Of a stretch of 64,000 nt of DNA, positions 11,041 through 44,669 are shown piece after piece. The notes below the pieces were generated by a model. That model was not told the origin of the DNA. It searched no databases and saw nothing but the letters and a program-made list of their open reading frames with translations. The stretch's first letter is position 1; each line of letters starts with the position of its first letter. Source of the DNA: Alphaproteobacteria bacterium (GTDB lineage Bacteria > Pseudomonadota > Alphaproteobacteria > SP197); assembly GCA_965213815.1 (NCBI GenBank), contig OZ243917.1:1882832-1946831 (forward strand). The letters run 5' to 3'. Made by a program: the position numbers and the translations under genes.

Positions 11041-11141
11041 GCCGGCGCCGCCCGTTTGCAGGGTTGTCTGGTGCGATCATGCTGTTTTCGAACCCGCATG
11101 GCAATGCGCCAGCTTGAAGATGCTCCCCGGATCATCAAGAA

Positions 11142-13148: not shown

Positions 13149-13303
13149 GAGCCTCCCTTCACATGATCGGCCTCCATATTCGTCCCTTGCCGCGAACGTG
13201 GCAAGGTCTCGCCCCCGGCTGGTGCAGGCATGGCGCGGATCATGTCTTGACGATGACCGTGTGTAGGGTATCCACTGACGGCGGATGATGGAGGCAAGGA
13301 GCC

Positions 13304-14149: not shown

Positions 14150-14172
14150 GCTGTGGCAACCGGCAGACATCG

Positions 14173-24539: not shown

Positions 24540-24750
24540 TATCGCTTCATTCAGTTCGTGTCGACGCCACGTCAGTGTTGCTGGAGAAGGCAAGGGAAGG
24601 AAACGGCGACCAGTGGTTCAACGAGGGAGCAGAGATCAACAGAACAGGTCCGTTGCCACCTTTCACGACCCCTTCAGCCTTGCCCCTGTCGATGCGTTGC
24701 CGACACTCCCTGATCGTGCGCTGTGCAGCCGTAGGGCCGGGGCGCAGGAA

Positions 24751-25744: not shown

Positions 25745-26036
25745 CTCACCATCCTTCGAGCCATGGGCGGAAAGACCGATCCCAACCGACCGGACGGTCG
25801 AGTGCGGCGTTCCTGATCCGATCATTGTCTTGCTCTGGCGCAAGCTCCAATTGGGTTGACATAAACAAGGGGTAAGTAGGCAGCAAACCTGCGGCGCCGC
25901 CAACATGCAGTCTCGACTGCTTTCTCCACGCAACACTCAGCGCCCCACGTGTGCCGTCGTGAACGGTCACCGGATCAGCGAGTCCGGGGATCCGGAGTGC
26001 CCGGCATCGTTGTCTGATCCGGGAAGGCGGCGGGTG

Positions 26037-27740
26037 TCAGGGATGGATGGTCACGGCGACGTGAGAGGCGTGGTTGGTGTCGTGGAAGACCGTCTGTGTG
26101 GCGATGATGGGGGTCGCACCCTGGCCGAAGGGTTCGCCGGTGTTGAGATTGCGGTCATAGCGGTTGAAGTTGCTGGACGAGACCTCGACGGCGAGACGGT
26201 GCCCGGGGGCGAGTGCATAGCTGGTTGACCACAGGTCGATGTCGAGCTCCTGGATCTCTCCCGGCTCCATCAGCTCCTCCCTTTCGATCCCGTTGCGGAA
26301 ACGGCAGCGCAGGATGCCGTCCTGAATGAGGTTGGCGCTGCCATCCTCCGCCACATCGGCGAGCGCCACGGTGACATCCGTATCCACCGCACTGCTGGAG
26401 AAGAAGAGGTGGGCCGAGATGGGGCCGGTCAGTTCCAGCCCGTCGGCAAACGGTTCCGACATGTAGATCAGAACATCCGGTCGTTCCTGGACCTTGCGCC
26501 GGTCACCCATCTCGCCTGCCAGGGACCAGCAGTCGTAAGCCAGTGTCTCGGCCACCGGATCGGCAGGGTCATAGCGATAGCTCTTCGCCGGTTCGTCACC
26601 GGGGGGATCGGGAGCAAGGAAGAGGGCGCCGGCAGACCTCAGGTAGAATCGCTGTTCCCGGCACTCCGGCGGTGGCCAGGCCCCGGCATCACGCCAGATG
26701 TCGCGCCCCATCACAAAGTAGCGAATGGCGCCGTTCTCACCGAACCCGTTCTCCGCGCCCTTCAGGTAGCGGTCGAAGAAGGTGGCGAAGGTGTCCCACT
26801 TCGCTTCGGCGGTGTTCGAGTTGACGGGCAGCAAGCCGACCCGGTGGCAGCGGTCGGCCGTGCCCTCGTGATCCCAGGGGCCGATGAAGAGATGCTGGTT
26901 GCGTGCCTCCATGGTGCGCCAGTCGGCGATGGTGGGGCCGAGGTAGTTGTCGTACCAGCCACCCCAGTGCAGCACCGGAATGCGAATGGTCTCGTAGCCG
27001 GCCAGCAGGCTGTGCTGCTCCCAGAACCGGGAGGGAAGGGGGTTGGCGATGAGCTCGTCGAAGTAGCGTGACGGGGCGCCCGCGGCATGGGCCATGTCGG
27101 CGAGCGGAAGATGCCAGTAGTCCAGCCGCGAGAGATCCTGGTAGGTCTGGTCCGTCATCGAGATCGCCCAGGTTCCCACCGTGTTCAGCTGCAGGCAGCC
27201 GTAGCGCATGGTGGCGCGATAGCGATCAAGGGAGATGTCGCCGGGCGCGATGCACTGCAGGGCCGGATGGCCGCTCACGGCTCCGGCATAGCTGGTGAAG
27301 CCGAAATAGCTCTCGCCCCACATGCCGACCCGGCGGTCGGACCAGTCCTCGCCCGTGATCCAGGCGATCGTGTCGTAGCCGTCGGGAACCTCGTTGTCGG
27401 CGAGATTGGGTTCGAAGTACCCCCCGGATCCCCATTTTCCCCGGACGTCCTGGACCACCGCGGCGTAGCCCTGCCGCACCCAGTGACGGGCGATGGCGGG
27501 CATGAAGCAGTAGGGCTCCGTCTTGCCGTAGGGCATGCGCGTCAGGATGGCGGGGAAGGGGCCGTCACCGGCGGGCAGATAGACGTCCGTTGCCAGTTCG
27601 ATACCGTCTCGCATGGGCACCATGATGTCGCTGATCACCGGACCTTCGCCGGCCCGTTCGGGCAGGGCGGAGGGGATGGTGTGATAGGCCGGTGTCTCGT
27701 GTTTGTCCTTCCACGCCTGAAGTCCGTCCGACACGTTCAT
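26037..27740 (-). CDS. CocE/NonD-family hydrolase (S15 X-Pro dipeptidyl-peptidase-like)
   Basis: …GMWGESYFGFTSY… nucleophile elbow (GxSYxG) and a C-terminal beta-sandwich domain. Paralog at 44670..46697. Confidence 0.8.
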   Translation of the reverse strand: MNVSDGLQAWKDKHETPAYHTIPSALPERAGEGPVISDIMVPMRDGIELATDVYLPAGDGPFPAILTRMPYGKTEPYCFMPAIARHWVRQGYAAVVQDVRGKWGSGGYFEPNLADNEVPDGYDTIAWITGEDWSDRRVGMWGESYFGFTSYAGAVSGHPALQCIAPGDISLDRYRATMRYGCLQLNTVGTWAISMTDQTYQDLSRLDYWHLPLADMAHAAGAPSRYFDELIANPLPSRFWEQHSLLAGYETIRIPVLHWGGWYDNYLGPTIADWRTMEARNQHLFIGPWDHEGTADRCHRVGLLPVNSNTAEAKWDTFATFFDRYLKGAENGFGENGAIRYFVMGRDIWRDAGAWPPPECREQRFYLRSAGALFLAPDPPGDEPAKSYRYDPADPVAETLAYDCWSLAGEMGDRRKVQERPDVLIYMSEPFADGLELTGPISAHLFFSSSAVDTDVTVALADVAEDGSANLIQDGILRCRFRNGIEREELMEPGEIQELDIDLWSTSYALAPGHRLAVEVSSSNFNRYDRNLNTGEPFGQGATPIIATQTVFHDTNHASHVAVTIHP

Positions 27741-27865
27741 GACACACGCCCTTTCCTGTCCACCACGGCGCCCCATGGTATCACGGTTGAAGCCGGTGCG
27801 CGCTTGACGCCCGGATGGTGGTGCGGCAGGGATAGTGCATCACGACAAGGGGAAGCCGTGCCGCC

Positions 27866-28174
27866 ATGTACAAGGTAGACCCGCGGCGCATGGATCTCGT
27901 GGCGGAGTTCATGCGGCAGCCGGGAGGACCCTACAGCCCGGAACTCACTCTGCTGGTCAACCGCCTTCGCCTGCTGCCCATGGCCGAGCGTGTCATCGTG
28001 GTGAAGGCCGGGGCGGGAGCCGGATGGCGTCTGGCGCGGATGCCGGCGCGCGGTGAGCCGGTTGCCTTCACCGACGCAACCGTGTTCGAAGACCATGATG
28101 ATGCCTGCCGCGAGGTCTTTCGCCGGCGCTGGTGCCATGTGACGGGCATCGATCCGGGACGGGGCGACCCATGA
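27866..28174 (+). CDS. putative N,N-dimethylformamidase small-subunit-like protein
   Basis: 102-aa ORF. Its stop overlaps (ATGA) the start of the large-subunit-like gene. Assignment rests on context only. Confidence 0.4.
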   Translation: MYKVDPRRMDLVAEFMRQPGGPYSPELTLLVNRLRLLPMAERVIVVKAGAGAGWRLARMPARGEPVAFTDATVFEDHDDACREVFRRRWCHVTGIDPGRGDP

Positions 28175-30378
28175 AGACGATCGTGGGCTATGCCAACCGG
28201 TGGAGCGCCATGCCGGGCGACACCATCGAATTCAAGGTCAGCACCTATGGTGCAGACACCTACAGGGCCGATCTCGTGCGCATCATTTGCGGCGACGACG
28301 ATCCCGATCGCGGCCTCTATCACGAGGAGGAAGTCGACGCCCCCTTCAACGGCGCCCATGAGGGCCGCACCCAGGAGATGGCGGCAGGCTCATGTGTCAT
28401 CGTGCCGCAGGCGGCTCCCGTCGAACGCCTCACGAGTTTCACGGCCCAGGCCTGGATCTACCCGACGCTGCCGGGAGGGCACGAACAGGGCATCATCACC
28501 CACTGGGACGGCGCGGAGTCTCGCGGGTTTGCCCTCGTCATCACGGCCGACGGCGTGCTTGCCCTGAGGACCGGTGACGGCGCCTTCCATGAATGTCGTC
28601 TCGAATCCAGGCTCGCGCCCCGGCGCTGGCACCTTGTCGCCGGCACCTTCGATGCGGCGACGGGCACCCTTGGCCTCGGTCTGCATCGTCTGGCGAGCGA
28701 GGTCGAGGCCGGGCAGAACGCGCACGCAAGCAGTGAGGGTGGCTTCCGGCCCGCCTGCGGTGCGCTTGTCATCGCCGCCGGAGAGGCAGGCAGGAGCGGC
28801 CACTTCAACGGCAAGATCGATCGGCCGATCCTCACCGGACGTGCCCTTGATTCGCGGGAAGTCGAAACCCTCGCATGGTCCGGTTCTCCCCATGAACGTG
28901 AGCCGTCTGTCGTTGCCGCCTGGGATTTCTCACACGATATAGGGTGCGCCCGGGTCACGGATGCCGGGTACCACCGCCTTCACGGCTCGACGGTCAATCT
29001 GCCGTCACGCGGGGTCAAGGGATTCAACTGGTCTGGCAGGGAACAGAACTGGCGCCATGCACCCTCGGAGTACGGGGCAATCCACTTTCATGAAGACGAT
29101 CACTATGATGCCGGGTGGGAGACGGACTTCACCTTCACCGTGCCGGACACCCTGGCGAGCGGGGTCTATGCTGCCCGGTTGAGGGCCGGCGACGACGAGT
29201 GGCATGTGACGTTCTTCGTGCGGCCGCCTTCGGGAACCGCGACGGCCAGACTCGCCTTCCTCGCATCGACAGCGACCTACATGGCCTACAGCAACTATCG
29301 CTGGCACATGAGCGAGCCCTTTGCGGAGGTGGCCGAGACCTTCTGGACGACGCTGACGGCGAATGACGTCTTCCTGCAGGAACACGACGAGTTCGGCCTG
29401 TCGACCTACGACACCCATGTCGACGGTTCCGGTGTGCGCTACGCCTCGAGGTTGCGTCCGGTCCTCAACATGGCGCCGCGCACGCCCCTGTGGAGCTTCA
29501 ATCCCGACACCCACATCCTGGCCTGGCTTGAGCATTGCGGGTTCGCCTTCGATGTCGTCACCGACGAGGACCTGCACCGGGAAGGAGCGGGTCTCCTGCA
29601 GCCCTACCGGGCGGTGGTCACGGGAACCCATCCCGAGTACTACACGACACCGATGTGGGACGGCATGCGCGGCTATCTGTCACACGGCGGGCGCCTCGCC
29701 TATCTCGGGGGCAACGGATTTATCTGGCGCTGCGCCTTTTCGGACGCCTGGCCAGGCGCCCTGGAGCTGCGCCGAGCCGAGGACGGCATCCGTTATCGCG
29801 ACGAGGAACCCGGCGAATACTACCTGGAGTTTACCGGCGAGTATGGCGGACTGTGGCGGCGTCTTGGCATGGCGCCGCAGGCGCTCGTCGGTGTCGGGAC
29901 CGTGGCGGTTGGCTTCGATCGCTCGGGATTCTACCGGCGCACCCCGGAAAGCCTCGATCCGCGGGCGGCCTTCATCTTCGAGGGTATCGGCCAGGATGAG
30001 TTGATCGGCACCTTCGGCATCCAGGGCGGAGGCGCCAGCGGTTCGGAGATCGACGCCACCGATCCCCTGCTGGGCACGCCCCGCCATGCCCTTGTGGTGG
30101 CCCGCTCGGAGGGTCATTCCGCCGACACCTGGCTGGTGCCCGACGAGACCGGCTTCCATCACAGCGCCATGAACGGAGTCCAGAACCCCGAAATCCGCGC
30201 CGACATGACGTTCTTCGAGACGCCCGCAGGCGGCGCCGTCTTTTCCACCGGATCCATCGCCTGGGGCGCCAGCCTGCCGCATGCCGACTGGCGGAACAAC
30301 GTGGCGACGCTGACCGGCAACGTGCTGAAGCGCTTCCTTGACCCGGAGCCCTTTGCCATGCCTGCCGGCACGCCGTGA
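28171..30378 (+). CDS. N,N-dimethylformamidase large (beta) subunit-family protein
   Basis: 736 aa with the architecture of the DMFase beta-subunit family: N-terminal lectin/glucanase-like domain and C-terminal amidotransferase-like domain. Recognised by overall sequence character, not a single motif. Confidence 0.65.
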   Translation: MKTIVGYANRWSAMPGDTIEFKVSTYGADTYRADLVRIICGDDDPDRGLYHEEEVDAPFNGAHEGRTQEMAAGSCVIVPQAAPVERLTSFTAQAWIYPTLPGGHEQGIITHWDGAESRGFALVITADGVLALRTGDGAFHECRLESRLAPRRWHLVAGTFDAATGTLGLGLHRLASEVEAGQNAHASSEGGFRPACGALVIAAGEAGRSGHFNGKIDRPILTGRALDSREVETLAWSGSPHEREPSVVAAWDFSHDIGCARVTDAGYHRLHGSTVNLPSRGVKGFNWSGREQNWRHAPSEYGAIHFHEDDHYDAGWETDFTFTVPDTLASGVYAARLRAGDDEWHVTFFVRPPSGTATARLAFLASTATYMAYSNYRWHMSEPFAEVAETFWTTLTANDVFLQEHDEFGLSTYDTHVDGSGVRYASRLRPVLNMAPRTPLWSFNPDTHILAWLEHCGFAFDVVTDEDLHREGAGLLQPYRAVVTGTHPEYYTTPMWDGMRGYLSHGGRLAYLGGNGFIWRCAFSDAWPGALELRRAEDGIRYRDEEPGEYYLEFTGEYGGLWRRLGMAPQALVGVGTVAVGFDRSGFYRRTPESLDPRAAFIFEGIGQDELIGTFGIQGGGASGSEIDATDPLLGTPRHALVVARSEGHSADTWLVPDETGFHHSAMNGVQNPEIRADMTFFETPAGGAVFSTGSIAWGASLPHADWRNNVATLTGNVLKRFLDPEPFAMPAGTP

Positions 30379-30741
30379 TCAGGCGGCGATCATGTAGAAC
30401 TTGCGCAGGGTGCTGGTGATTTCCCAGGTGCAGGCGGCGCCCTTGGGAATGAAGAAGGTGTCGCCCGCGGTATAGGTCTCGGCCTTGCCGGTCTCGTCGG
30501 TGACCGTGACGGACCCGTCGAGGACGGTCATCATCTCGTTGACCGGGTAGGCATCGATCTCTTCACGGCACGGCGCACACAGCCACACTCCGGTAAGGAT
30601 ACTGCCGTCCTCGGCGGTCCAGGCGTGGGAAATGAGTTCGGTCGTGTCCCCGGAGGTGAACGCTTCCCGGGCAATGAGGTCGGACGTCACCATACCTTCG
30701 GCATGGCCATCGTGGTTGAGGCGCACAGGCCTGTCGGTCAT
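30379..30741 (-). CDS. cupin-domain protein (cupin_3/DUF861-like)
   Basis: Small beta-barrel protein. …TGVWLCAPCREEIDAYPVNEMMTVLDG…FFIPKGAACTWEI… is a cupin fold pattern. Start codon uncertain. Confidence 0.5.
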   Translation of the reverse strand: MTDRPVRLNHDGHAEGMVTSDLIAREAFTSGDTTELISHAWTAEDGSILTGVWLCAPCREEIDAYPVNEMMTVLDGSVTVTDETGKAETYTAGDTFFIPKGAACTWEITSTLRKFYMIAA

Positions 30742-30800
30742 GGGATGATCTCCGTTGCGGCTGAAGGCAACAGTCATGATGGGCGGGAGTGGCGGGCGAC

Positions 30801-31442
30801 TCAAGTCCGGTCACGAAGGCGGAGAAACACCCAGACGACATAGAGGCTGTGCGGGTCTCCGGCGAAGGCCTCGAGGGGACCTGCGGTGTCGATGCGGCGG
30901 ACGAGGCCTGCGGTCTCCAGGTCCTGCGCCTCCTCCTCATATCCGCCCTCGTCGATGCCCTCGAGACGAACGGAGAGCACAAGATGCCCACCGTCGCGTG
31001 TGAGGCGGACCATCTCCCGGAAACCATGTGCCGGAGCGTGGGTGATGCCGAAGGCGCCGGCTGAGGCAACGGCGGCAAAGTGGCCGTCGGGAAGATCGAT
31101 CGGCTGTCCGAGTTCACCGGTCACCATGCTGCTGTAGACACCGCGACGGGAAGCACGCTCGAGCATGCCCGGCGACATGTCGAGGGCAACGAGGTCGCGG
31201 TATCCGCCCACCGACAGCCGTTCCCCGAGAATGCCGGTGCCGGCCCCGGCATCGAGGATGGCTCCGGCGCCGGTGGGGACATGACGCGCCACGAGGTCCG
31301 TGATGACCCCGGGCAGCCGGTAGTCACGGCGTGCGACGTCGCCGTCATAGTCGTCGGACCAGATGTCGTAGGACTGGCGCAGTTCCCGTGAATCGCGCGG
31401 TTCGTAGATCCTCCTCATCAGTTCTTCGTAAGACAGCGCCAT
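30801..31442 (-). CDS. class I SAM-dependent methyltransferase
   Basis: AILDAGAGTGILGERL (motif I) … DLPDGHFAAVASAGAF (motif II/III). AAGGAAAGGGG Shine-Dalgarno before the ATG at 31442. Confidence 0.7.
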   Translation of the reverse strand: MALSYEELMRRIYEPRDSRELRQSYDIWSDDYDGDVARRDYRLPGVITDLVARHVPTGAGAILDAGAGTGILGERLSVGGYRDLVALDMSPGMLERASRRGVYSSMVTGELGQPIDLPDGHFAAVASAGAFGITHAPAHGFREMVRLTRDGGHLVLSVRLEGIDEGGYEEEAQDLETAGLVRRIDTAGPLEAFAGDPHSLYVVWVFLRLRDRT

Positions 31443-31527
31443 GGCCCCTTTTCCTTCGGGTCGGTTGGTCAAGTGCCGGGCAATTCTGTATCCTTGTCAG
31501 CAGAAAACCTAATCGGAAGGAGACGAC

Positions 31528-32673
31528 ATGACCGGAATCATGCCCGTTGACGAGTTCAGGGATGCACTCTCCAGCAAGGCGCTTACGAGAAGGGATGTCG
31601 CGAGAACCCTGGGCGCGGTTGGCGTGGCCACGGCCACCATGCCGTTCGTACGGCAGCCCGTGATGGCCCAGGATGACGAATGGCTCTACCTCTTCACGTG
31701 GAACGGCTACGAACTGCCGGAGCTTCATCCGGCGTTTACCGAGAAGTACGGGCGCGAGCCCGACTCGTCCTTCTACGCCGACAATGACGAGGCACTGGAG
31801 AAAATCCGTGCCGGCTTCGAGGCCGATATCGTGTGTCCCAGCGGAAGCACCGTCATCCGCTGGATTCACGCCGGCTTGGTGGAGCCCATCGACACCAGCC
31901 GCCTGAGCCACTGGCCCGATATCTTCGATCAGTTACGCAATATCCGCGGTACGTCCGATGACGCGGGCAACCAGTACTACGCACCGTGGTCCTGGGGCAA
32001 TTCCTCCATCGTGTTCCGCAGTGATCTGGCGCCCGAGTACTCCGGCAAGGAGAACCACACCTGGAAGATTCTCTGGGATCCCAAGTATGCCAACCGGGTG
32101 GCGATGCGCGACAACTGGGCGGGAACCACCATTCCCGCCGGCCTCATTGCCGGAGTCGCGGATCCCTTCGCGATGACGGATGAGGAAATCGTGGAGGTCC
32201 GCAAGCTGCTTCAGGAACAGCGCGAGCTCAACCGCTTCTACTGGGCGAGCGAGGTGGATGCCCAGTCGGCCCTGGCGACCGGCGAGATCGTGGCCATGTA
32301 TGCCTGGAACTCGGCCTACGCGACGTTGAAGTCGGAAGGGGTCGAGGTCGAGTACATGGTGCCCAGGGAAGGGCTGCTGACCTGGGTCGACGGCCACGTG
32401 CTTCTGAAGAGCTACATCGGCACCGAGGAGCAGCGCTACGACTATCTCGATGCCACCCTGGCTCCCGAAGTCGGCGTCTTCATGATCGAGGAGTACGCGT
32501 ACGGCGCCGCCAATGTGAAGTCCTACGACATGGCCTCGCCGGCCATCATCGAGACTCTCGGCCTTGAGGATCCCGGGTCCATCTTGTCGGGGAGCCTGTG
32601 GTTCCAGACGGTACCGCCCGACATCCAGCGCAAGCTCGTCAATCTGCATGACGAGGTGCTTGCCGGCATGTAG
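31528..32673 (+). CDS. ABC transporter periplasmic binding protein, PotD/PotF (polyamine/amine) family, Tat signal
   Basis: Twin-arginine signal …LTRRDVARTLGAVGVATATMP… followed by a PotD-like fold (…WNGYELPELH…). Confidence 0.8.
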   Translation: MTGIMPVDEFRDALSSKALTRRDVARTLGAVGVATATMPFVRQPVMAQDDEWLYLFTWNGYELPELHPAFTEKYGREPDSSFYADNDEALEKIRAGFEADIVCPSGSTVIRWIHAGLVEPIDTSRLSHWPDIFDQLRNIRGTSDDAGNQYYAPWSWGNSSIVFRSDLAPEYSGKENHTWKILWDPKYANRVAMRDNWAGTTIPAGLIAGVADPFAMTDEEIVEVRKLLQEQRELNRFYWASEVDAQSALATGEIVAMYAWNSAYATLKSEGVEVEYMVPREGLLTWVDGHVLLKSYIGTEEQRYDYLDATLAPEVGVFMIEEYAYGAANVKSYDMASPAIIETLGLEDPGSILSGSLWFQTVPPDIQRKLVNLHDEVLAGM

Positions 32674-32723
32674 TTTCTGAAGGGGTCGGTATCATTCCGG
32701 CCCCTTCGTTGCCGGGGCGCGCC

Positions 32724-33569
32724 ATGGCATGTGAACTTGCCCTTCTGGCTGGTGATGCCGGGGTGGGCGACATTATCCGGGCGGTCGACCGCGACGGGGC
32801 CGCCATCGTCACCGATTTCGTCGATGCCGACTGGCTCGACCGCTTCAACCGAGCCATCGACCCTGCGGTCGCGAATGCGCGGCGGGTGCCCTTCGACAAT
32901 ACCGCCATCGATTCCTTCCTCGGTGACCACACGGTGCGCCTGCACGGTCTGCTGGCGAAGGCGCCGTCCTTTGTCGACCTGATGATCGAGCCGCGCCTTC
33001 TCGCCATGATGGATCACTGGCTGCTTCCCCGCTGTTCGAGTTATCTCTTCAGCGCCGGTGAGCTCATCGAGATCAGGGGAGGAGAGACGGCCCAGCGGTT
33101 TCATGTCGACGACGGGTCGTGGCCGGTCTGGCCGCGCCGGGGAGCAGGTCTTCTGCAGGTGAACGTCATGGTGGCGGCCACGGACTTCACGTGCCGCAAC
33201 GGTGCGACACTCGTGGCCCCGGGCAGCCACAGGTGGGAGAGCGGGAGGTTGCCCGGCGAGGACGAAATTGCGCACGCCGTGATGCCCCGGGGCAGCATCG
33301 CCATCATCAGGGGCGATTGCCTGCATGCCGGAGGCACCAACACGGACGGCACCCGCCGCCGTGCCCTGTCGCTGTCCTGGTGCCTTGGGTGGCTGCGAAC
33401 CGTCGAAAACACCTGGCTCACCCTTCCCCTCGACGTGGTGAGCCGACTGCCTCCGAGAGCGCGGGAACTGCTGGGCTACGAGATCTACGACGGGTCGGCC
33501 GACGAGGTACGAAGCGGATTTCTCGGCTACTACGAGATGGGCAGTCCCCGGACGCTGTTCGACGACTGA
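32724..33569 (+). CDS. PhyH-family Fe(II)/2-oxoglutarate dioxygenase
   Basis: …AQRFHVDDG… (HxD) and …APGSHRW…RGD… typical of phytanoyl-CoA dioxygenase-like enzymes. Its 3' end is duplicated at ~35322..35475. Confidence 0.75.
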   Translation: MACELALLAGDAGVGDIIRAVDRDGAAIVTDFVDADWLDRFNRAIDPAVANARRVPFDNTAIDSFLGDHTVRLHGLLAKAPSFVDLMIEPRLLAMMDHWLLPRCSSYLFSAGELIEIRGGETAQRFHVDDGSWPVWPRRGAGLLQVNVMVAATDFTCRNGATLVAPGSHRWESGRLPGEDEIAHAVMPRGSIAIIRGDCLHAGGTNTDGTRRRALSLSWCLGWLRTVENTWLTLPLDVVSRLPPRARELLGYEIYDGSADEVRSGFLGYYEMGSPRTLFDD

Positions 33570-33580
33570 ACGTCGAGGTG
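33376..33580. repeat. copy A of an imperfect direct repeat: 3' end of phyH, stop codon and ~12 bp downstream (intact)
   Basis: …ACACCTGGCTCACCCTTCCCCTCGACGTGGTGAGCCGACTGCC…CTGTTCGACGACTGAACGTCGAGG. It aligns with 35322..35480 at ~80% identity with one ~35-bp gap. Confidence 0.75.
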
Positions 33581-34043
33581 GAACTCGGATACGGTGTGAG
33601 CAACAGAGGAACTGCTTGTCCGGGACCAACGATCAGGACGATCCTGGAGAACCGGGTAGGGTATCGGGTTGGTCATCTTGTTGATGACATGCCGGGCGGT
33701 CGTCTTGGCCAGGACGATGGACTTGCAGGAGCCCGTCGCCATCCTTGCCCAAAGCCGCTCGAACGTACCGCCGTTGGACGGGATATCGACAACACCAAAC
33801 CACACGTTCGGCAGCCTCTGTCTGAAAGAAGAAGCGTCGTGTCCCGAACTCCCCAGGGTGTTCCAGCAGACGCTTCGTGACCCGCGACACGCTTGCCGAC
33901 CCGCCAGGATCGTCGTCAGTCCTGGAGTGCGGCGAGACGATGATCTGCCCGGCGGGCTTCGGCCGTCCGCAGGATCAAGAAGCCGCGTCCTCCTGTCGTA
34001 GTGCCACTCCCATGGCGAGCAGACGATCAACTGGTCGACGGGG

Positions 34044-34388
34044 TCACGACCTCGCCCCTTGCGGGACCAGATGCTCAAGTTGTGGGATGAGAAGGGGAAT
34101 GTCCTGATCCACTGTGTTCCATACGATATCCATGTCGATGTCATCGTAACCGTGGATCATGCGATTGCGCATTCCCCTGACTTGCGCCCATGGAATCTCG
34201 GGATGCCTTTCGCAGAATGTCGGCGACAACCGTCCGGTTGCCTCGCCCATGACTTCGATGCGGCGAATTACGGAATCCTGCAACTGCGGATTTGCAAGAA
34301 ACCCGCAACGCGAAACGCCCTCAATGTAGGACAGAATTGCACGAGCCGATCCGAGTATGTCGAGAAGGAGTGCGGAATCACGGTCCAT
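34044..34388 (-). CDS. hepT: HepT-family toxin (DUF86, nucleotidyltransferase-substrate-binding / RNase)
   Basis: Conserved Rx4HxY motif (RNRMIHGY). Overlaps the MNT gene. Confidence 0.8.
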   Translation of the reverse strand: MDRDSALLLDILGSARAILSYIEGVSRCGFLANPQLQDSVIRRIEVMGEATGRLSPTFCERHPEIPWAQVRGMRNRMIHGYDDIDMDIVWNTVDQDIPLLIPQLEHLVPQGARS

Positions 34389-34695
34389 AGACGAGTTCCG
34401 CCGATTGCAGGATTGCTTTGCGTCGCAGGTAGTTGGGGCTCATCTCGACACTGCGCCAACTGACAAGATCGACATCCCGCCCGAAGATGTCCTTCAGCTC
34501 CTCCTCCATCCGATCCATGTCGAACAGCGTATGGCGCGCCGCTTCGTCGAACCCGGCCAGAATGTCGATGTCGCTATTGGGGCCAAAGTCATCCCGAAGC
34601 ACCGAGCCGAACAGGGCCAGCTTCACGATGCCCCAGCGTTCACAGAATAGGGTGAGCTTGTCGGTCGGTATGGCAATGTGCGCGGTCACGACCAA
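34378..34695 (-). CDS. mnt: MNT-family nucleotidyltransferase antitoxin
   Basis: …LFGSVLRDDFGPNSDIDIL… minimal nucleotidyltransferase motif (GSx9-13DxD). Immediately upstream of, and overlapping, hepT. Confidence 0.8.
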   Translation of the reverse strand: MVVTAHIAIPTDKLTLFCERWGIVKLALFGSVLRDDFGPNSDIDILAGFDEAARHTLFDMDRMEEELKDIFGRDVDLVSWRSVEMSPNYLRRKAILQSAELVYGP

Positions 34696-35102
34696 AGGGC
34701 CCGATTGGCGCTTGCGTCAAGTCCTGAGGTTCTCGATTCTCGGAATGGCTTGATTTGCCGGCGCTTCTCGTCGCCCGGTCTGGCATGGATGTCGCCTGTC
34801 ATGAATGCGCGAACACGCTTCGGCCCGTACTCTTCGATGAGAAACCCGAGTCCGGAGATGGTGGCTCGCCGTAAGCGGCGCCGGGGACTTTCCCTGGAGA
34901 GGGTGCCCGGCGCCGGCAGGGCAACAGTAGATACGACATCCAGGTGGTTCCCAGACTTCTCGATGACTGTGCTGCCCTGGTTCGGCGGCTCGTGCAGAAC
35001 CACTGGCCCGAGTTCCAGTCTCTCCAGACACGCTGTGACCGCTTTCCTCGTCGCTTCGTCATGACCGTGCACGGCGAAGACCTTGTTGCCCCAACGCGAC
35101 AT
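34686..35102 (-). CDS. COG4271 TIR-like nucleotide-binding protein (Cap12/Pycsar-effector-like domain); start uncertain, possibly a remnant
   Basis: …NKVFAVHGHDEATRKAVTACLERLELGPVVLHEPPNQGSTVIEKSGNHLDVV… matches the KVFIVHGHDEE…LG.EPIILHEQPN.GRTIIEKFE consensus. The in-frame 5' extension runs into the degenerate phyH repeat. Confidence 0.5.
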   Translation of the reverse strand: MSRWGNKVFAVHGHDEATRKAVTACLERLELGPVVLHEPPNQGSTVIEKSGNHLDVVSTVALPAPGTLSRESPRRRLRRATISGLGFLIEEYGPKRVRAFMTGDIHARPGDEKRRQIKPFRESRTSGLDASANRALWS

Positions 35103-35321
35103 GGCAGGGTCATCGTCGCAGGTATCGGGATTTCGTTCCGCTTCCTGCCAACCCTCTTCGAATTCCTCGATCCAAGAATGAAGCAACGCGATTGCCCTGT
35201 CCACGCTGGTTCCCGCACCTTGACGATAGCCAACGATCAAATTGTGATCAACGGGAGAGAACGCTCGGCACCCAATGCCCTGCGCCTTGATTCCGCCGGT
35301 CCTGGTGCTGTTGGATGACTG

Positions 35322-35480
35322 TGCCCGGTCCAGGGACACCTGCCTCACCCTTCCCTGCGACGTGGTGGGCAGATTGCCCCGGAGAGCGTGGCAACTGCTG
35401 GGCGACGAGATCTGCGACGGATCAACTGCGAGATGGGGAGCCCCCGAGTCCTGTTCGAAGACTGAACTTCGGGGCGGGCT
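35322..35480. repeat. copy B (degenerate) of the phyH 3'-end repeat
   Basis: CCTCACCCTTCCCTGCGACGTGGTGGGCAGATTGCCCCGGAGAGCGTGGCAACTGCTGGGCGACGAGATCTGCGACGG…CTGTTCGAAGACTGAACTTCGGGG. Translates to LTLPCDVVGRLPRRAWQLLGDEICDGS versus LTLPLDVVSRLPPRARELLGYEIYDGS in copy A. Confidence 0.75.
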
Positions 35481-36283
35481 CACGGCGGCGTGGCGAAGGT
35501 CGCCCGGATGACCTCGGTTTCGCACGGGACCGCGAGGAGGCCGTCCTCACCGACGAAGGGGGCGAGCGCCCGGTCGATGGTCGCCAGGATGACGCTCCGG
35601 TCATGGTGGACCTCGGCGGCGCGAACGTGGGAGGTCGAACGGACGTAGCCGAGCCACTCGTTCCTGGTGCGCCTCCAGATCCACGGGAAGCGCCGGGTGC
35701 GGACAGTCCGGACGCACGCGAGGGTGGCCAGATCGTCGGCGCCGATGTGATCGCGGTAGGTGCGCCGGTAACCCGGAGAGATGTTCTCGAGAGCCGTTTC
35801 GTAGGCTTGCGAGATGGCGGAATCCCTGATCCTGTTATTGTTGAGGATGGCGAGGGAGCCGCCCGGGCGGAGAATGCGGCCGCACTCGGCATGGAAGAGG
35901 TCGCGGTCGAGCCAGTGAGCCGCCTGTGCGACAGTGACGAGATCGAACGTGCCGGGTGCCAGCGGCAGCCTCTCTGCCCTGCCGCCGAGCCAGTGGATGT
36001 CGCCGGTTGTTTCTGCGGCGGTCTCGAGCATGTCGCGGGCCGGTTCGATACCGATGACGAGGGAGTCGGGAAAGCGTGACCGCAACTGGCGCGTCAGGAT
36101 TCCGGTGCCGCTGGCAACGTCGGCGATACGCCGGGGATGGTGCGCCAGCCAGTCGATCGCCTCCGGTGGATAGCAGGGACGGAAGCGGTCGTAATCCGAC
36201 GCCAGGCCTTCGAAGATGGTACCGGGGTCGGCCCAGCGGGACGACCAGGGGTGTCCTGTGGCCGGGCGTTCAGCGGACCCCAT
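35480..36283 (-). CDS. class I SAM-dependent methyltransferase (Tam/type-11-like)
   Basis: …IADVASGTGILTRQL… (motif I) and …FDLVTVAQAAHWLD… Start 13 nt downstream of the fdsA stop, same strand, so it is the distal gene of the fds operon. Confidence 0.7.
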   Translation of the reverse strand: MGSAERPATGHPWSSRWADPGTIFEGLASDYDRFRPCYPPEAIDWLAHHPRRIADVASGTGILTRQLRSRFPDSLVIGIEPARDMLETAAETTGDIHWLGGRAERLPLAPGTFDLVTVAQAAHWLDRDLFHAECGRILRPGGSLAILNNNRIRDSAISQAYETALENISPGYRRTYRDHIGADDLATLACVRTVRTRRFPWIWRRTRNEWLGYVRSTSHVRAAEVHHDRSVILATIDRALAPFVGEDGLLAVPCETEVIRATFATPP

Positions 36284-39035
36284 GCCGGGCGTGCTCCACA
36301 CGGACGGCGCAGAACTTGAACTCCGGGATCTTGCCGACGGGATCGAGAGCCGGATTGGTGAGCAGGTTGGCTGCGGCTTCCACGTAGCAGAACGGCACGA
36401 ACACCATGCCGGGCTGGAGTCCCGAATCGAGGCGCACCCTGGCCTCGATGGCGCCGCGCCGTGTCTGGATGCGCACGTCGTCACCGGGCGTCAGATGAAG
36501 GCGGGCCATGTCGCCAGGCGCCATCATGGCCACCGCCTCGGGCTCGAGGCTGTCGAGCACGGTGGCGCGCCTGGTCATGGCGCCGGTATGCCAGTGCTCG
36601 AGCTGGCGTCCCGTCGTCAGGATCATCGGGAAGTTCTCGTCGGGCGTCTCGTCGGGCGGGATGATGGCCGCCGGGACCATCAGACCGCGGCCGCTTGGCG
36701 TCGGGAAGGCGTCCGCGAAGACGATCTCCTGGCCGGGATCATCCTCCGACTCGCATGGATAGATCACCGCATCCTCGGAACTGACCCGCTGCCAGGAGAT
36801 ACCGGCGATGGAGGGCATGGTCAGTCGCATCTCCTCATAGACCTCACTGATATCGCCGTAACGCCAGTCGAGTCCGAGGCCCCGGGCGATCGCCTGGATG
36901 ATGGCCCAGTCCTGACGCGCCTCCCCGGGCACAGGAACCGCCTTGCGGCCGCGCTGGACCTGGCGGTTGGTGTTGGTGACCGTGCCGTCCTTTTCGGGCC
37001 AGGCACTGGCCGGCAGGACGACGTGGGCGTGCATCGCGGTCTCGGTGAGAAAGAGATCCTGAACCACGAGATGATCGAGCCTTGCCAGGGCGGCGCGGGC
37101 GTGGTGGACATCGGGATCCGACATCGCCGGATTCTCGCCCATGATGTACATGCCCTTCATGGTTCCGTCGTGGACGGCATCCATGATCTCCACCACGGTC
37201 AGGCCCGGATCGGCGCTGAGTTCCGTCTCCCAGAGGGCGCTGAAGCGCTGCCGCACGTCCCCGTCGGCCACCGGCGCATAGTCGGGATAACTCATCGGGA
37301 TCAGTCCGGCATCGGAGGCGCCCTGCACGTTGTTCTGTCCACGCAGGGGGTGGAGCCCGGTGCCCTCGCGCCCGGTTTGGCCGGTCATGAGAGCAAGGGA
37401 GATCAGGCAGCGGGCGTTGTCCGTGCCGTGGACATGCTGGCTGATGCCCATGCCCCAGAAGATCATGGCGCGTTCGGCGCCGGCATAGGCGCGTGCCACC
37501 GCCCGCAGTGTTGGCGCATCGACGCCGGTGACCGGCTCCATCGATTCCGGGGAGTACGCCGCGAGGTGGTCCTTCAACTCCTCGAAACCCTGGGTCATCG
37601 TCTCGATGTAGACGGGATCGTGAAGCCCCTCCTCGACAATGACATGCATGATGGCGTTCAGCACCGCGACGTCGGCCCCGGGCCGGAACTGGACCATGTG
37701 GGTGGCGTGCTGACGCAGGGTCTGGCCGCGCGGATCCATGACCACGAGGCGGGCGCCGCGCTTGACGGCATTCTTGAAGAACGTGGCGGCAACAGGATGA
37801 TTTTCTGTCGGGTTTGCGCCGATGACGACAATGCAGTCCGCCTTCAGCGCTTCGGTGAAGGGAGCGGTTACCGCGCCCGAGCCGATGGTCTGCAGCAATG
37901 CCGCCACGGAACTTGCATGGCAGAGCCTGGTGCAGTGATCGACGTTGTTGCTGCCGAAGCCGGTCCGCACCAGCTTCTGGAAGAGGTAGGCTTCCTCGTT
38001 GGAACCCTTGGCGGAACCGAAACCCGCCAGGGCGCGGCCGCCGTGGCGGTCACGGATGGCGGCCAGACCTGAGGTGGCCACCTCAAGGGCCTCGTCCCAG
38101 TCCGCTTCGCGAAAGTGCGAGAAGGGATTGGCCGGATCGACCCACTCGTCGGCGCCCCGGGGCGCATCCTCGCGCCGGATGAGCGGGCGTTTGAGACGCT
38201 GGGGATCATGGATGTAGTCGAAACCGAAGCGTCCCTTGACACACAGCCGGCCGTGATTGGCGGGGCCCTCCTTGCCCTTCACGGCGATGATTCGCTCGTT
38301 CTCCACCTGGTAGGTAATCTGGCAGCCCACGCCGCAGTAGGGACAGACGCTGTCCACCTTCGTGGCAGGCACCGGCCGGCCGATGCCGGCGGCATCGACA
38401 AGGGACTTCTCCATCAGCGCGCCGGTGGGACATGACTGGACGCATTCCCCGCAGGCAACACAGGTCGATTCACCCATGGGATCGTCGAAGTCGAAGACGA
38501 TCTTCGAGTTGGGACCGCGCCCGGCCATGGCAATGACGTCATTGACCTGGATGTCCCGGCAGGCCCGCTGGCAGCGGTTGCAGTGGATGCAGGCGTCAAG
38601 ATTGACGGCCATCGCCGGATGGGAAAGGTCGGGAGCCGGCTGTGACGCCCGACGCGGAAAGCGGGAGTCGTCCAGATCTATCTCGCGAGCCCATCGCCAG
38701 AGCTCCGATGTGGTGGTGTGGGCGCGTGGTTCCTCGGGCTGGTCGGCAACGAGAAGTTCAAGCACGGTGCGGCGTGATGCCTCGGCACGGCCGCTGGCGC
38801 TGTGGACGACCATGTCCGGCGTCGGCTGGCGGATGCACGAGGCGGCAAGAGTGCGTTCGCCCTCGATTTCGACCATGCACAGCCGGCAGTTGCCGTCGGC
38901 GGCATAGTCCTGCATCTCGGTATGACACAGGTGCGGAATATGCGTTCCCGTGCGCCGCGCCACCTGCCAGATCGATTCGCCGGCATGGGCTGTGACGGTT
39001 GTTCCGTCCAGCGAGAAGGTGATGGTGTCGCTCAC
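36270..39035 (-). CDS. fdsA: NAD-dependent formate dehydrogenase alpha subunit (Cys-type, not a selenoprotein)
   Basis: N-terminal 2Fe-2S ferredoxin (…CRLCMVEIEG…), NuoG-like 4Fe-4S clusters and a Mo-bisPGD catalytic domain. No in-frame TGA. GTG start overlaps the fdsB stop (GTGA). Confidence 0.85.
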   Translation of the reverse strand: MSDTITFSLDGTTVTAHAGESIWQVARRTGTHIPHLCHTEMQDYAADGNCRLCMVEIEGERTLAASCIRQPTPDMVVHSASGRAEASRRTVLELLVADQPEEPRAHTTTSELWRWAREIDLDDSRFPRRASQPAPDLSHPAMAVNLDACIHCNRCQRACRDIQVNDVIAMAGRGPNSKIVFDFDDPMGESTCVACGECVQSCPTGALMEKSLVDAAGIGRPVPATKVDSVCPYCGVGCQITYQVENERIIAVKGKEGPANHGRLCVKGRFGFDYIHDPQRLKRPLIRREDAPRGADEWVDPANPFSHFREADWDEALEVATSGLAAIRDRHGGRALAGFGSAKGSNEEAYLFQKLVRTGFGSNNVDHCTRLCHASSVAALLQTIGSGAVTAPFTEALKADCIVVIGANPTENHPVAATFFKNAVKRGARLVVMDPRGQTLRQHATHMVQFRPGADVAVLNAIMHVIVEEGLHDPVYIETMTQGFEELKDHLAAYSPESMEPVTGVDAPTLRAVARAYAGAERAMIFWGMGISQHVHGTDNARCLISLALMTGQTGREGTGLHPLRGQNNVQGASDAGLIPMSYPDYAPVADGDVRQRFSALWETELSADPGLTVVEIMDAVHDGTMKGMYIMGENPAMSDPDVHHARAALARLDHLVVQDLFLTETAMHAHVVLPASAWPEKDGTVTNTNRQVQRGRKAVPVPGEARQDWAIIQAIARGLGLDWRYGDISEVYEEMRLTMPSIAGISWQRVSSEDAVIYPCESEDDPGQEIVFADAFPTPSGRGLMVPAAIIPPDETPDENFPMILTTGRQLEHWHTGAMTRRATVLDSLEPEAVAMMAPGDMARLHLTPGDDVRIQTRRGAIEARVRLDSGLQPGMVFVPFCYVEAAANLLTNPALDPVGKIPEFKFCAVRVEHARHGVR

Positions 39036-40726
39036 GCCACATCCTCCGGGAAGTACTTGAGGACAGTCAGTATCGGGTTGGGTGCGGCCTGACCCAGGCC
39101 GCAGATCGAGGCGTCGGCCATGACCTGGCAGAGGTCTTCGAGGAGTGGCGCATTCCAGGAACCGCCCTCCATCAGGGCCACTGCCTTCTCGCAGCCGACC
39201 CGGCACGGCGTGCACTGGCCGCAGCTTTCGTCCTCGAAGAACTTCAGGAGGCTGACGGCCACATCCGACATGTTGTCCTGGTCGGACAGCACCACGACGG
39301 CTGCCGAGCCGATGAAACCGCCGTGGGGCTGGATGGTATCGAAGTCGAGAGGCACGTCGCCAAGCGAGGCGGGAAGGATCCCGCCCGAGGCCCCGCCGGG
39401 AAGCCAGCCCCTGAACCGGTGGCCGTCCGCCATGCCACCACAGAACTCGGCGATCAGTTCGTTGACGGTGATGCCCGCCGGCGCCAGCTTGACGCCGGGG
39501 TCCCTGACCCGCCCGGAGACGGAAAAACTGCGCAGGCCGCTGCGTCCGTGACGGCCGTGACCGGCGAACCAGTCGGCGCCCTTCGACAGGATTCCCGGGA
39601 CCCAGTAGAGGGTCTCGACGTTGTGAACAAGCGTCGGTCTTTCGAAGATACCGACCTTGGCGACGAAGGGCGGACGGTGACGCGGCAGCCCGCGTTTGCC
39701 CTCGATGGATTCGATCATCGCCGATTCTTCGCCGCAGATATAGGCGCCGGCACCGCGACGCAGGTGGATCCGCGCCGCCCCCTCCAGACCGGCATCGGCG
39801 AGGCGCGCCAGTTCACGGGTCAGCGCCAGGCGGATCCCCGGATACTCGTCGCGCAGGTAGAAGTAGACGTCGCTGGCCTCGACCACCCAGGCAGCGATCA
39901 GAGTCCCCTCGATGATTCGGTGAGGCTCTGTCTCGAGATAGTGGCGATCCTTGAAGGTGCCGACCTCGCCTTCGTCGGCATTCACGGCCATCAGCCGTGG
40001 TCCGGCTTCCATGCGCACGAAACGCCACTTTCGTCCCGCCGGGAAGCCGGCGCCTCCCAGACCGCGAAGCGACGCCGACTCCATGGTGGCCATGAGGTCT
40101 TCGGGTGTGTGCCTGCCCGCAAGGACTTCCCGAAGCATCGTATAGCCGCCCTCGGCAAGGTAGGCGTCGAGATCCTGACAGTCCGGTACCCTCGCCTCGA
40201 GATCCCCTGTCTCGATCGCAGCCCTGACACGGGCGACGCTGGCGTGATCGATGTCGTTCAGGCCCGCCTTGACCGCGGGAGCGGCGGCGCACCGTCCCAT
40301 GCAGGGTGCCCGCACCACCCTGACGTCGGACCCGAGCGTGCCGGAAAGGACGTGACAGAGGTGGTCGGCGCCGGCCATGGCGCACGACAGGCTCTCGCAC
40401 ACGCGCACGGTGATGGGCGGGGGCGGAGCCTCGCCCTCCCTGATGACATCGAAGTGGTGATAGAACGTCGCCACCTCGAAGGCTTCTGCCATGGGGATCG
40501 CGAGGGCGTCGGCAAGGGCTTTCAGGTGACTGTGGGAAATGTGGCGGTAGCGGTCCTGGATGAGATGGAGGTACTCGATCAGGAGTTCGCGCCTCGGCGG
40601 CGCATCACCAAGAAGCGCAGCGACCTCGGACGCCGCTTGCGGCTCCGCCTGGCGCCCTCTTGCGGTGGCGCGCGATCGTCTCTTCCTCGCCCCCGGCGAC
40701 CGGAAAGTGGTACCGCTTCGATCCAT
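39032..40726 (-). CDS. fdsB: NAD-dependent formate dehydrogenase beta subunit (NuoF-like, with an N-terminal NuoE-like thioredoxin-fold domain)
   Basis: …GAGAYICGEESAMIESIEGKRG… FMN/NADH motifs, a C-terminal …CGQCTPCRVGCEK… 4Fe-4S, and an N-terminal CESLSC…C…MGRC 2Fe-2S. Start chosen at MDRSG (40726) because the longer ORF would overlap the ABC ATPase gene. Confidence 0.8.
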   Translation of the reverse strand: MDRSGTTFRSPGARKRRSRATARGRQAEPQAASEVAALLGDAPPRRELLIEYLHLIQDRYRHISHSHLKALADALAIPMAEAFEVATFYHHFDVIREGEAPPPPITVRVCESLSCAMAGADHLCHVLSGTLGSDVRVVRAPCMGRCAAAPAVKAGLNDIDHASVARVRAAIETGDLEARVPDCQDLDAYLAEGGYTMLREVLAGRHTPEDLMATMESASLRGLGGAGFPAGRKWRFVRMEAGPRLMAVNADEGEVGTFKDRHYLETEPHRIIEGTLIAAWVVEASDVYFYLRDEYPGIRLALTRELARLADAGLEGAARIHLRRGAGAYICGEESAMIESIEGKRGLPRHRPPFVAKVGIFERPTLVHNVETLYWVPGILSKGADWFAGHGRHGRSGLRSFSVSGRVRDPGVKLAPAGITVNELIAEFCGGMADGHRFRGWLPGGASGGILPASLGDVPLDFDTIQPHGGFIGSAAVVVLSDQDNMSDVAVSLLKFFEDESCGQCTPCRVGCEKAVALMEGGSWNAPLLEDLCQVMADASICGLGQAAPNPILTVLKYFPEDVA

Positions 40727-40787
40727 CGTCAAACCCGTTCGCGTTCCCTGAAATGGGGGGCGACCATGCCGGATGACACGCCGGGTG

Positions 40788-44600: not shown

Positions 44601-44669
44601 GGTCTGCTATCGGGCTATGGATCGGTCGGCAAGTCAACCACGCAGTTGTTTGCCTCGCGGGCCCGATGC

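Follow-up and report, generated by a model that had tools for sequence, protein, structure and literature searches.

A 1.7-kb islet (33582 to ~35298) lies between a phyH-family dioxygenase gene and its neighbouring methyltransferase gene in the 64,000-nt stretch of DNA analysed here (the window), and comparison with related genomes supports its being an insertion. Its content is best explained as a fragment of a foreign five-gene Type III-like restriction-modification (R-M) operon with an embedded three-gene module. We consider it probable, at roughly 0.6, that the islet entered by a single homologous crossover in the conserved tail of phyH and was subsequently retained through toxin-antitoxin addiction. 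The islet is a well-resolved case, and one that is ordinary in kind. The features of the region are:

32709..33569, plus strand: phyH-family dioxygenase gene, intact (Pfam PF05721, 86.7 bits)
33374..33581, plus strand: repeat copy A, the functional phyH 3' end with its stop codon (33567-33569) and ~12 nt downstream
33542..33581, plus strand: tail of copy A, probably from a different phyH lineage, as judged by a change-point scan and by states shared with distant orthologues
33580..34039, minus strand: remnant of a Type III Res-like (ResIII helicase) gene, the first ~200 codons, degenerate and frameshifted
34044..34388, minus strand: predicted HepT toxin gene (HEPN RNase), intact (Pfam PF01934, 85.7 bits)
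34378..34689, minus strand: predicted MntA-type MNT antitoxin gene, intact (Pfam PF01909, 53.1 bits; PADLOC PDC-S09)
34686..35258, minus strand: TIR-like pseudogene (PF10137; PADLOC PDC-S35), identified as such by comparison with intact homologues of 210-271 aa
35259..35298, no strand assigned: junction zone between cassette and copy B, with TIR homology ending at ~35258
35299..35477, plus strand: repeat copy B, a pseudogene fragment and apparently the displaced ancestral phyH 3' end (stop codon 35463-35465)
35480..36283, minus strand: SAM-dependent methyltransferase gene (Pfam Methyltransf_11, Methyltransf_25), the ancestral convergent neighbour of phyH

The preliminary description of this region had reported that the phyH 3' end occurs twice, in copies ~80% identical, and blastn bears this out. 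Positions 35299-35423 align with 33374-33496 at 80% identity over 125 columns (E 2.4e-27) and 35425-35477 with 33529-33581 at 79% identity over 53 (E 2.6e-10), with the stop codon and ~12 nt beyond it present in both copies. The coordinates first proposed were roughly right: copy B starts at 35299 and not at 35322, ~23 nt earlier, and the gap measures 31 nt instead of ~35. The gene calls likewise stand, with Pfam recovering PhyH, HepT-like, NTP_transf_2 (MNT) and a weak CAP12-PCTIR_TIR match (PF10137, 34.8 bits with a cut-off of 24.7). The phyH open reading frame itself encodes 286 aa from a TTG at 32709, orthologues suggesting the ATG at 32724 as the start, and its product is 87-91% identical to syntenic orthologues (L001-L003, L021).

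Evidence for insertion comes from three related genomes (L002, L003 and L021) in which the site is empty, phyH and the methyltransferase being direct neighbours; the existence of such a site had been proposed as a check. A single 197-nt stretch of L002 matches copies A and B both, and the flanks of the window are collinear with L002 and L003 over 26037 to 45461. The methyltransferase is syntenic with FDH in L001-L003, L010 and L021, and when metagenomes were scanned for both types of phyH tail, the only addition was one more empty site, that of L021. Searches with the islet by tblastx and blastn gave no meaningful match in the syntenic loci or in the rest of the window, which indicates that it is foreign to the lineage and without a second copy. 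A distant-mode DNA search against plasmids also gave no match, and there is no tRNA near the islet. The lower GC of the islet is real but modest: 0.594, with flanks at 0.643 and 0.664 and the whole window at 0.646.

The res remnant, HepT, MNT and the TIR-like remnant account for every part of the islet, and no integrase or recombinase, nor a remnant of either, was found in it. The ~470 bp in which no credible open reading frame had been seen, and in which a decayed integrase had been suspected, do lack an intact gene (33582-34043); they are not featureless, and what they hold is a frameshifted 5' fragment of a Res-like helicase gene in place of the supposed integrase. This fragment aligns in two frames with aa 6-170 and 173-202 of the 942-aa Res of L013 (tblastn, E 1e-22), and has 72-78% nucleotide identity (blastn) to the sequence downstream of HepT in L013 and L014. 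The intact Res homologue is matched by Pfam ResIII and PADLOC REase_III, and the Walker A motif KMATGSGKT has become RMATGSCKS in the remnant. Judged from its gene content, the islet has no R-M function: mod is absent from the window, and the ~200-codon, frameshifted 5' fragment of res is dead.

The TIR-like gene, which the preliminary description had placed with the Cap12-type domain, matches PF10137 and PDC-S35, and is on our alignments a neutrally decaying pseudogene and not a working gene. Its first ~8-22 codons, including the start, are gone; it is stop-free otherwise, and its motifs are damaged by in-frame deletions of 3 aa and 10 aa at TPDD and PxDYxG and by a change of FELG to SGLG. 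Differences are spread almost evenly over codon positions (54/55/48), compared with 83/54/131 in an intact-versus-intact control, and the PDC-S35 score is 85 bits, as against 231-309 bits for intact genes. Nucleotide divergence from L011 stands at 27%, compared with 13% for copy B. A protein search with the 138-aa TIR-like open reading frame found no relatives at E<=1e-3, because of this decay. Neither the islet nor the intact contexts inspected contain a CD-NTase or pyrimidine cyclase partner.

Within the islet, only MNT and HepT are, from their patterns of substitution, intact and under purifying selection. Compared with L011, HepT is 82-85% and MNT 90% identical, and the skew of their differences by codon position (8/11/22 for HepT, 7/3/21 for MNT) points to purifying selection. 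The overlapping antitoxin/toxin pair described earlier is confirmed by Pfam, by motifs and by the overlap of the two genes at 34378-34388, with the antitoxin gene upstream. Both products are small (103-114 aa), and their translations contain RX4HXY in HepT (R-NRMI-H-G-Y) and GSX10DXD in MntA (GS-VLRDDFGPNS-DID), the motifs being those defined in PMC7641770. The likely start of MNT is a GTG at 34689-34687 that overlaps the TIR-like stop as GTGA, and a TTG at 34695 is also readable. In type VII (Class I) HepT/MntA systems, the RNase toxicity of HepT is neutralised by MntA-catalysed AMPylation, and the window pair is a predicted member of this type.

The operon from which the islet appears to derive, mod-TIR-MNT-HepT-res, is present with its five genes abutting or overlapping in L013 and L022. 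It is frameshifted in L014 and variously truncated in L011/12, L015-18, L019/20, L023 and L024, all of which retain MNT-HepT. The islet extends from ~codon 8-22 of the TIR-like gene to ~codon 200 of res, and both its ends fall within truncated genes belonging to one operon. A test for larger versions of the island elsewhere had been suggested, and a defence partner (mod/res in L013 and L022) was found; a shared phyH target was not, the sites being unrelated. Among ten other cassette contexts, none (0/10) is associated with phyH or has a phyH-like att, and no other cassette instance has comparable flanking repeats, the cassettes of L016 and L019 having none. The candidacy of L015 as a second target-end duplication was rejected, since the duplicate there, 97-99% identical, takes in part of the cassette as well and so represents a later tandem duplication. 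The closest cassette relatives, L011 and L012, lie directly beside a TrwC relaxase.

The phyH junction has only two occupants, the window cassette and, in L001, a PhoX gene that has no homologue in the other loci or in the window. In L001 the crossover has the topology seen in the window and lies in the same phyH tail, and there is no recombinase. Compared with the empty site of L021, its left path runs at 96-100% identity and then at 80-88%, and its right path at 70-90% and then at 96-100%, with one switch of similarity, located within the phyH tail. Since L001 has this topology and no recombinase, a requirement for a recombinase is not supported.

These data bear on the view first taken of the islet, that it is a site-specific element. 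It would then be the remnant of an ICE/IME with the phyH 3' end in its attP, whose own integrase was later deleted together with most of the element. Such an origin would account for the classic architecture, in which incoming DNA restores a gene end and the original end is left at the far boundary, and the relaxase beside the L011 and L012 cassettes indicates that the cassette does travel on conjugative elements. However, the sole non-coding-looking stretch is the res remnant, which leaves nothing of an integrase, and at least two deletions are needed, each stopping at a repeat boundary. The direct repeats contain no identical att-like core of more than 12 nt, the longest identical run between copies A and B, although decay could have erased one. 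Furthermore, no other cassette sits at phyH or between comparable repeats, and in L001 the topology recurs around cargo that is a metabolic gene, with no recombinase. With neither a recombinase remnant nor a phyH target shared among the cassette relatives, the claim of a site-specific element is not sustained, and we regard this origin as unlikely.

Two further alternatives turn on the relationship between the repeat copies. By alignment with its orthologues, copy B is the original phyH end, displaced and decaying at the neutral rate. It lacks 31 nt that are present in copy A (33497-33528) and is frameshifted as a result. Its own changes lie at sites conserved in all orthologues and are distributed 9/4/4 by codon position. 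That a displaced original end lies at the far boundary, as first described, is upheld by its tail, which is of the close-orthologue type (30/31 nt), and by its adjoining the methyltransferase exactly as phyH does in the empty sites. The lineage-specific rate of copy B is 12.7%, that of 4-fold sites 12.5%, and this near-equality suggests that the insertion is old, of about the age of the lineage's split from L001-L003. In the left part of copy B the differences are decay-like and fit donor or host origin alike, and the junction zone contains a marginal collinear phyH-like match at 35261-35283 (blastn E 0.78).

Copy A has a different history over its last ~40 nt. An unbiased scan places a change-point at 33542, where window-specific differences rise from 6.0% to 25% (delta lnL 6.5), and the tail differs at 6/28 sites, compared with 50/802 in the phyH gene body (p=0.008). 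It encodes ...RTLFDD(stop), where the lineage otherwise has ...RVLFED(stop), and contains two synonymous changes and one triple-hit codon (GTC -> ACG). The states AGT and xCG in this tail are common to the distant orthologues L004-L008, whereas the tail of copy B has kept the close-orthologue sequence. The 12 nt that follow the stop codon are a diverged homologue of the local phyH-methyltransferase intergenic sequence. Although they amount to ~7 substitutions in 40 nt and a moderate likelihood gain, these differences support the last ~40 nt of copy A being incoming DNA of another phyH lineage. The earlier proposal that an incoming copy restored the gene end holds for this segment and fails for 33374-33541, whose background ~6% difference from close orthologues rules out a copy A that is foreign throughout. 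Genome and metagenome scans found no donor phyH with the ...RTLFDD(stop) tail.

A duplication in situ, in which template switching or break-induced replication copied ~200 nt of the phyH end and captured foreign DNA, the tail of copy A being changed later by mutation or gene conversion, seems to us improbable. It draws on the differences of copy B, which are pure decay at universally conserved sites, on the occurrence of tandem duplications around cassettes, as in L015, and on the moderate statistics for the foreign tail. It does not readily explain why the synonymous changes and the GTC -> ACG codon in that tail coincide with the states of other phyH lineages, or why the post-stop 12 nt are homologous to, but diverged from, the sequence found locally between the genes. 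In the right copy of L001, moreover, preservation is 96% across the phyH tail, which has no function there, and only 70-90% across the equally non-functional stretch beside it, a contrast in keeping with a crossover between diverged molecules but not with uniform decay. There is very little to recommend the import from a related species, by two-sided homologous recombination with its left crossover at ~33540, of a block in which islet and both repeats had already formed, since, although the post-stop homology of copy A implies a donor with shared synteny and the stronger decay of the TIR-like gene (27% from L011, with 13% for copy B) is compatible with decay before arrival, the methyltransferase and FDH show normal lineage-specific rates of 5-9%, the host-like tail of copy B demands a right crossover coincidentally equivalent in position to the left one, and the original insertion is merely moved into another genome.

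For the single crossover that we favour, we propose the following course. The cassette would have arrived linked to a phyH 3' end from a related, distinct lineage, and host homologous recombination would have integrated it by a single crossover within the final ~30-40 nt of phyH, which are highly conserved. A switch from recipient to donor inside the homology is seen at the window change-point, and the same pattern recurs between L001 and L021. The other junction lies at phyH nt 666 (window 35299), like the first placed only approximately, and may have formed by Campbell-type circle closure or by an illegitimate end-join, as in homology-facilitated illegitimate recombination. By either route the outcome would be an intact phyH with a foreign tail, and an original tail orphaned beside the methyltransferase. 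Since arrival, substitution patterns show neutral decay of the res remnant, the TIR-like gene and copy B, and purifying selection on MntA/HepT, and the segment is probably held in place by toxin-antitoxin addiction. The methyltransferase lies upstream of the cassette genes on the same strand, and transcription of the cassette is probably due to read-through from the FDH-methyltransferase operon, which has the same orientation; in a crude scan for promoters and terminators nothing resembling a promoter was seen, and the single terminator-like site is no more than chance would give.

If this is correct, a short piece of foreign DNA can become inserted at the 3' end of a housekeeping gene with no integrase at work and yet leave a textbook att-like signature, which would be a caution to programs for island detection that take duplicated gene ends as equivalent to site-specific elements. 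The Type III-like R-M operon has eroded repeatedly and independently to MntA/HepT, and this is direct comparative evidence that in a decaying defence locus the toxin-antitoxin pair survives longest. A broader reading, which we put forward tentatively and think doubtful as a whole, is that the TIR-like protein (PDC-S35), MntA and HepT form one R-M-wired module, fragments of which spread without a recombinase by means of a captured host gene end that acts as a portable homology arm; the conserved phyH tail would then represent a recurrent, RecA-dependent landing pad, used twice (in the window and in L001) for different cargo. Such a module would amount to an undescribed layered defence, in which a TIR-like effector is controlled by, or has as its backup, the HEPN protein and its AMPylating antitoxin, and the window would then capture the terminal decay state of that module. 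The intact five-gene operon of L013 and L022 is a candidate for experimental testing of defence.

Integrase-mediated islands of the tRNA/tmRNA type insert at the 3' end of a gene and rebuild that end. The islet resembles them in its direct repeats of a gene 3' end, its insert-supplied functional copy and its empty site, and differs in having no recombinase, identical core or same-site recurrence, and in ending inside broken genes. [quoted passage not shown] Both cases have a homology anchor in a conserved gene segment, a displaced 3' end downstream and no integrase; in the islet, however, the anchor is a metabolic gene, which was restored and not re-tipped with a toxin, and a single round is seen. 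HEPN/MNT genes are described as clustering with R-M operons in the portion of Anantharaman et al. 2013 (PMC3710099) on which we draw, with PrrC-PrrI as the paradigm, and L013 and L022 agree with it in having a Type III methylase on one side of MNT-HEPN and a Res helicase on the other, the genes abutting. They differ in their extra TIR-like (PDC-S35) partner, absent from that portion of the description, and the window differs again in lacking mod and in its dead res. Intact homologues of the TIR-like gene resemble Cap12/PycTIR-type effectors, matching PDC-S35 at the scores given above and PycTIR/TIR-effector models more weakly, whereas the window copy is a pseudogene, and the conserved partner in the contexts seen is MntA/HepT and not a cyclase. 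With the type VII HepT/MntA system, described as two genes without a TIR-like partner or R-M embedding, the window pair, known by sequence, shares adjacent PF01909 and PF01934 genes that overlap with the antitoxin first, and both the RX4HXY and GSX10DXD motifs. It differs in that the pair of this clade is ancestrally the distal part of a TIR-like three-gene unit inside an R-M operon.

The final ~200 nt of the phyH-family gene are present twice in the window, as an intact copy followed by a degenerate one, and blastn alignment bears out this part of the preliminary description. Two blocks align, 35299-35423 with 33374-33496 (80% identity, E 2.4e-27) and 35425-35477 with 33529-33581 (79% identity, E 2.6e-10), and the longest identical core shared by the copies is 12 nt. 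The coordinates first proposed lay near these values, except that copy B begins at 35299 and its gap measures 31 nt. The lower GC of the islet was likewise upheld (0.594, against 0.643 and 0.664 in the flanks), and Pfam confirmed the PhyH, HepT-like and MNT nucleotidyltransferase assignments, with a weak match to CAP12/Pycsar-TIR.

Features of the islet and its boundaries
33374-33581: copy A, intact phyH end, stop codon at 33567-33569
33580-34039: res', remnant of a Type III Res-like helicase gene
34686-35258, minus strand: TIR', remnant of a TIR-like gene
35299-35477: copy B, 31 nt missing, frameshifted, stop codon kept with ~12 nt of similar sequence after it

A search for phyH relatives yielded loci from alphaproteobacterial MAGs in synteny with the window. 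In the related genomes L002 and L003, as in the metagenome contig L021, no more than ~20 nt separate phyH from the convergent methyltransferase gene, beyond which lies FDH. Collinearity between the window and L002 is interrupted at 33571-35298 only, and a single 197-nt stretch of L002 (10666-10862) aligns to both window copies. This adjacency, together with the one stretch matching both copies, means that an empty site exists, and the suggested insertion was thus seen against its empty counterpart in L002, L003 and L021.

These loci differ in other respects. Ahead of the MT_up methyltransferase and after the upstream genes, L002 and L003 have ~0.45-0.9 kb without an alignment to the window (window 30754-30826 versus L002 7221-8104). 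A distant phyH paralogue (36-38% identity) lies on the minus strand, ~9 kb upstream of the phyH orthologue, in L001 (725-1462), L002 (84-812) and L003 (542-1270). In another syntenic locus, L010, phyH is nearly all deleted, with only about residues 191-245 detectable (7361-7648), while SBP, methyltransferase and FDH genes are still syntenic; phyH is therefore dispensable in at least one lineage.

At every difference between the copies within the last ~30 coding nt, it is copy B that matches all close orthologues (tail type …GSPRVLFED*) and copy A that deviates (…GSPRTLFDD*). An unbiased two-rate change-point scan over SBP-phyH placed a switch at 33542 (delta lnL 6.5), with window-specific differences of 6.0% before and 25% after; a post hoc Fisher test on the copy A tail gave p=0.008. 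Among the changes in this tail are synonymous ones and a triple-hit codon, and these coincide with states of the more distant orthologues L004-L008, the pattern expected of a tail that came from a different, functional phyH lineage. The changes particular to copy B fall at sites invariant across all orthologues, are spread 9/4/4 by codon position, and give a lineage-specific rate of 12.7%, equal to the 12.5% four-fold-site rate of neighbouring genes. Its orthologue-like tail and neutral-rate changes mark copy B, as first proposed, as the displaced ancestral phyH end, neutrally decayed for about the whole branch. The insertion is old. Outside the repeat, phyH (32709-33373) also shows four-fold-site lineage-specific change of 0.204, nearly twofold that of its neighbours (SBP 0.119, FDH 0.111); either relaxed constraint or past recombination between it and other phyH lineages could account for this excess.

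The preliminary description took the ORF-free stretch next to copy A for a possible decayed integrase. This is ruled out: the stretch matches residues 6-202 of the Res protein of L013 across two reading frames (E 1e-22), including a degraded Walker A motif, and nucleotide homology also supports its identity as res'. Nor did the TIR-like gene prove to be a working defence gene. Its homology runs from 35258 down to 34686 with the first codons missing, in-frame deletions of 3 aa and 10 aa affect the TPDD and PxDYxG motifs, and SGLG replaces the FELG of homologues. In PADLOC, intact TIR-like proteins fall into the candidate family PDC-S35 with scores of 231-309 bits, against only 85 bits for the window copy. 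Selection was assessed from nucleotide differences per codon position relative to L011, a locus carrying related genes.

Differences at codon positions 1/2/3
Window TIR-like gene versus L011: 54/55/48, neutral decay
Window MNT versus L011: 7/3/21, purifying selection
Window HepT versus L011: 8/11/22, purifying selection
Control, intact TIR of L011 versus L013: 83/54/131, purifying selection

MNT matches PDC-S09 (PADLOC) and carries the GSX10DXD motif, and HepT carries RX4HXY; these motifs define Class I type VII HepT/MntA systems (PMC7641770).

Relatives of HepT are numerous, and inspection of their gene contexts revealed a tight five-gene operon whose genes abut or overlap, in the order mod (a Type III methylase), TIR-like (264-271 aa), MNT, HepT and res, the last encoding a ResIII protein of ~940 aa (L013 4309-11170; L022 898-8158). 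The window cassette seems to have had its ancestral context in this operon. L014 has it too, but there mod, TIR and res are broken. TIR-MNT-HepT with a 73-codon res stub adjoins a TrwC relaxase in L011 and L012, the trio stands alone among metabolic genes in L019 and L020, and L015-L018, L023 and L024 are reduced to MNT-HepT, in some cases accompanied by a stub of the TIR tail. Given res', the decayed TIR' and the intact MNT and HepT, the islet is a fragment of the five-gene operon, truncated at both ends, with the toxin-antitoxin pair its sole predicted living part. L015 also contains a recent tandem duplication (7034-7743 and 8585-9143, 97-99% identical) covering the 3' part of Octopine_DH, the stub of the TIR tail and 44 nt from the start of MNT; as it includes part of the cassette, it is later than the cassette insertion. 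In L016-L018, which are related to L015, the Octopine_DH ORF ends at the coordinate of the TIR-like stop in other loci.

In the related genome L001, the phyH/methyltransferase junction has received a duplicative insertion of its own, independent of that in the window. The gene order there is phyH, methyltransferase 3' fragment, PhoX, phyH fragments and intact methyltransferase, and the inserted block of 3.4 kb (10855-14300) comprises the methyltransferase fragment, PhoX and the phyH fragments. The PhoX (alkaline phosphatase) gene is intact, and the block contains no recombinase. L001 was compared with L021, its empty-site relative.

Identity of L001 to L021
Left path: 96-100% until just past the phyH stop, then 80-88%
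Right path: 70-90%, rising to 96-100% over the last ~100 nt of phyH and beyond

There is one reciprocal similarity switch, located in the phyH tail, and a crossover between diverged molecules explains it. Had an in-situ duplicate decayed uniformly, the non-functional tail of the right copy would not have been spared.

The phyH tail also holds the longest nucleotide blocks conserved family-wide, which would make it the likeliest place for diverged-sequence recombination to resolve. With no recombinase or remnant of one in the islet or collinear flanks, the L001 parallel and this conserved tail, these comparisons favour entry through one homologous crossover located there. The second junction, at phyH nt 666, would mark either the point at which a circularised fragment closed (Campbell-type) or an end joined by homology-facilitated illegitimate recombination, the latter as proposed for orphaned 3' ends in Rhs/CDI/T6SS arrays (PMC5361080). 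The left part of copy B, which has decay-type changes only, is compatible with either version. The site-specific element originally envisaged is not supported: beyond the missing recombinase, no tRNA lies near the islet, the repeats share no identical core longer than 12 nt, and cassette relatives sit at unrelated sites.

The cassette genes all run in the same direction as the FDH-methyltransferase genes upstream of them. The islet showed no promoter-like site, and its only terminator-like site, inside HepT, is at chance level, which makes transcription by read-through plausible. MNT probably starts with GTG at 34689, which forms a GTGA overlap with the stop codon of TIR'. The TIR' frame has stayed free of stops despite neutral decay (P about 0.04 by simulation), and neither of its two indels shifts the frame, whereas res' and copy B are frameshifted. 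This post hoc, weak effect hints that selection for translational coupling kept the frame open. Retention of the segment through toxin-antitoxin addiction would fit the repeated erosion of the operon to MNT-HepT across contexts.

A second window-specific segment of ~1.5 kb (24545-26037), missing from L001-L003, carries a frameshifted RhuM-family/Fic-DOC gene with the HPFxxGNKR motif in a shifted frame. This is a further decayed toxin-type islet, and the region around it is otherwise collinear. No flanking repeats of at least 20 nt surround it.

Literature searches found no paper naming PDC-S35, and the mod-TIR-MNT-HepT-res operon appears undescribed so far. Linkage of HEPN/MNT with R-M operons is already known (PMC3710099), the displaced-end architecture has precedents, and the living part of the islet is itself ordinary, a HepT/MntA module of Class I, type VII. 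Modestly novel, besides the operon, are an integrase-free route that would give an att-like signature, twice, at one gene tail, and a dead upstream gene whose reading frame may be maintained.
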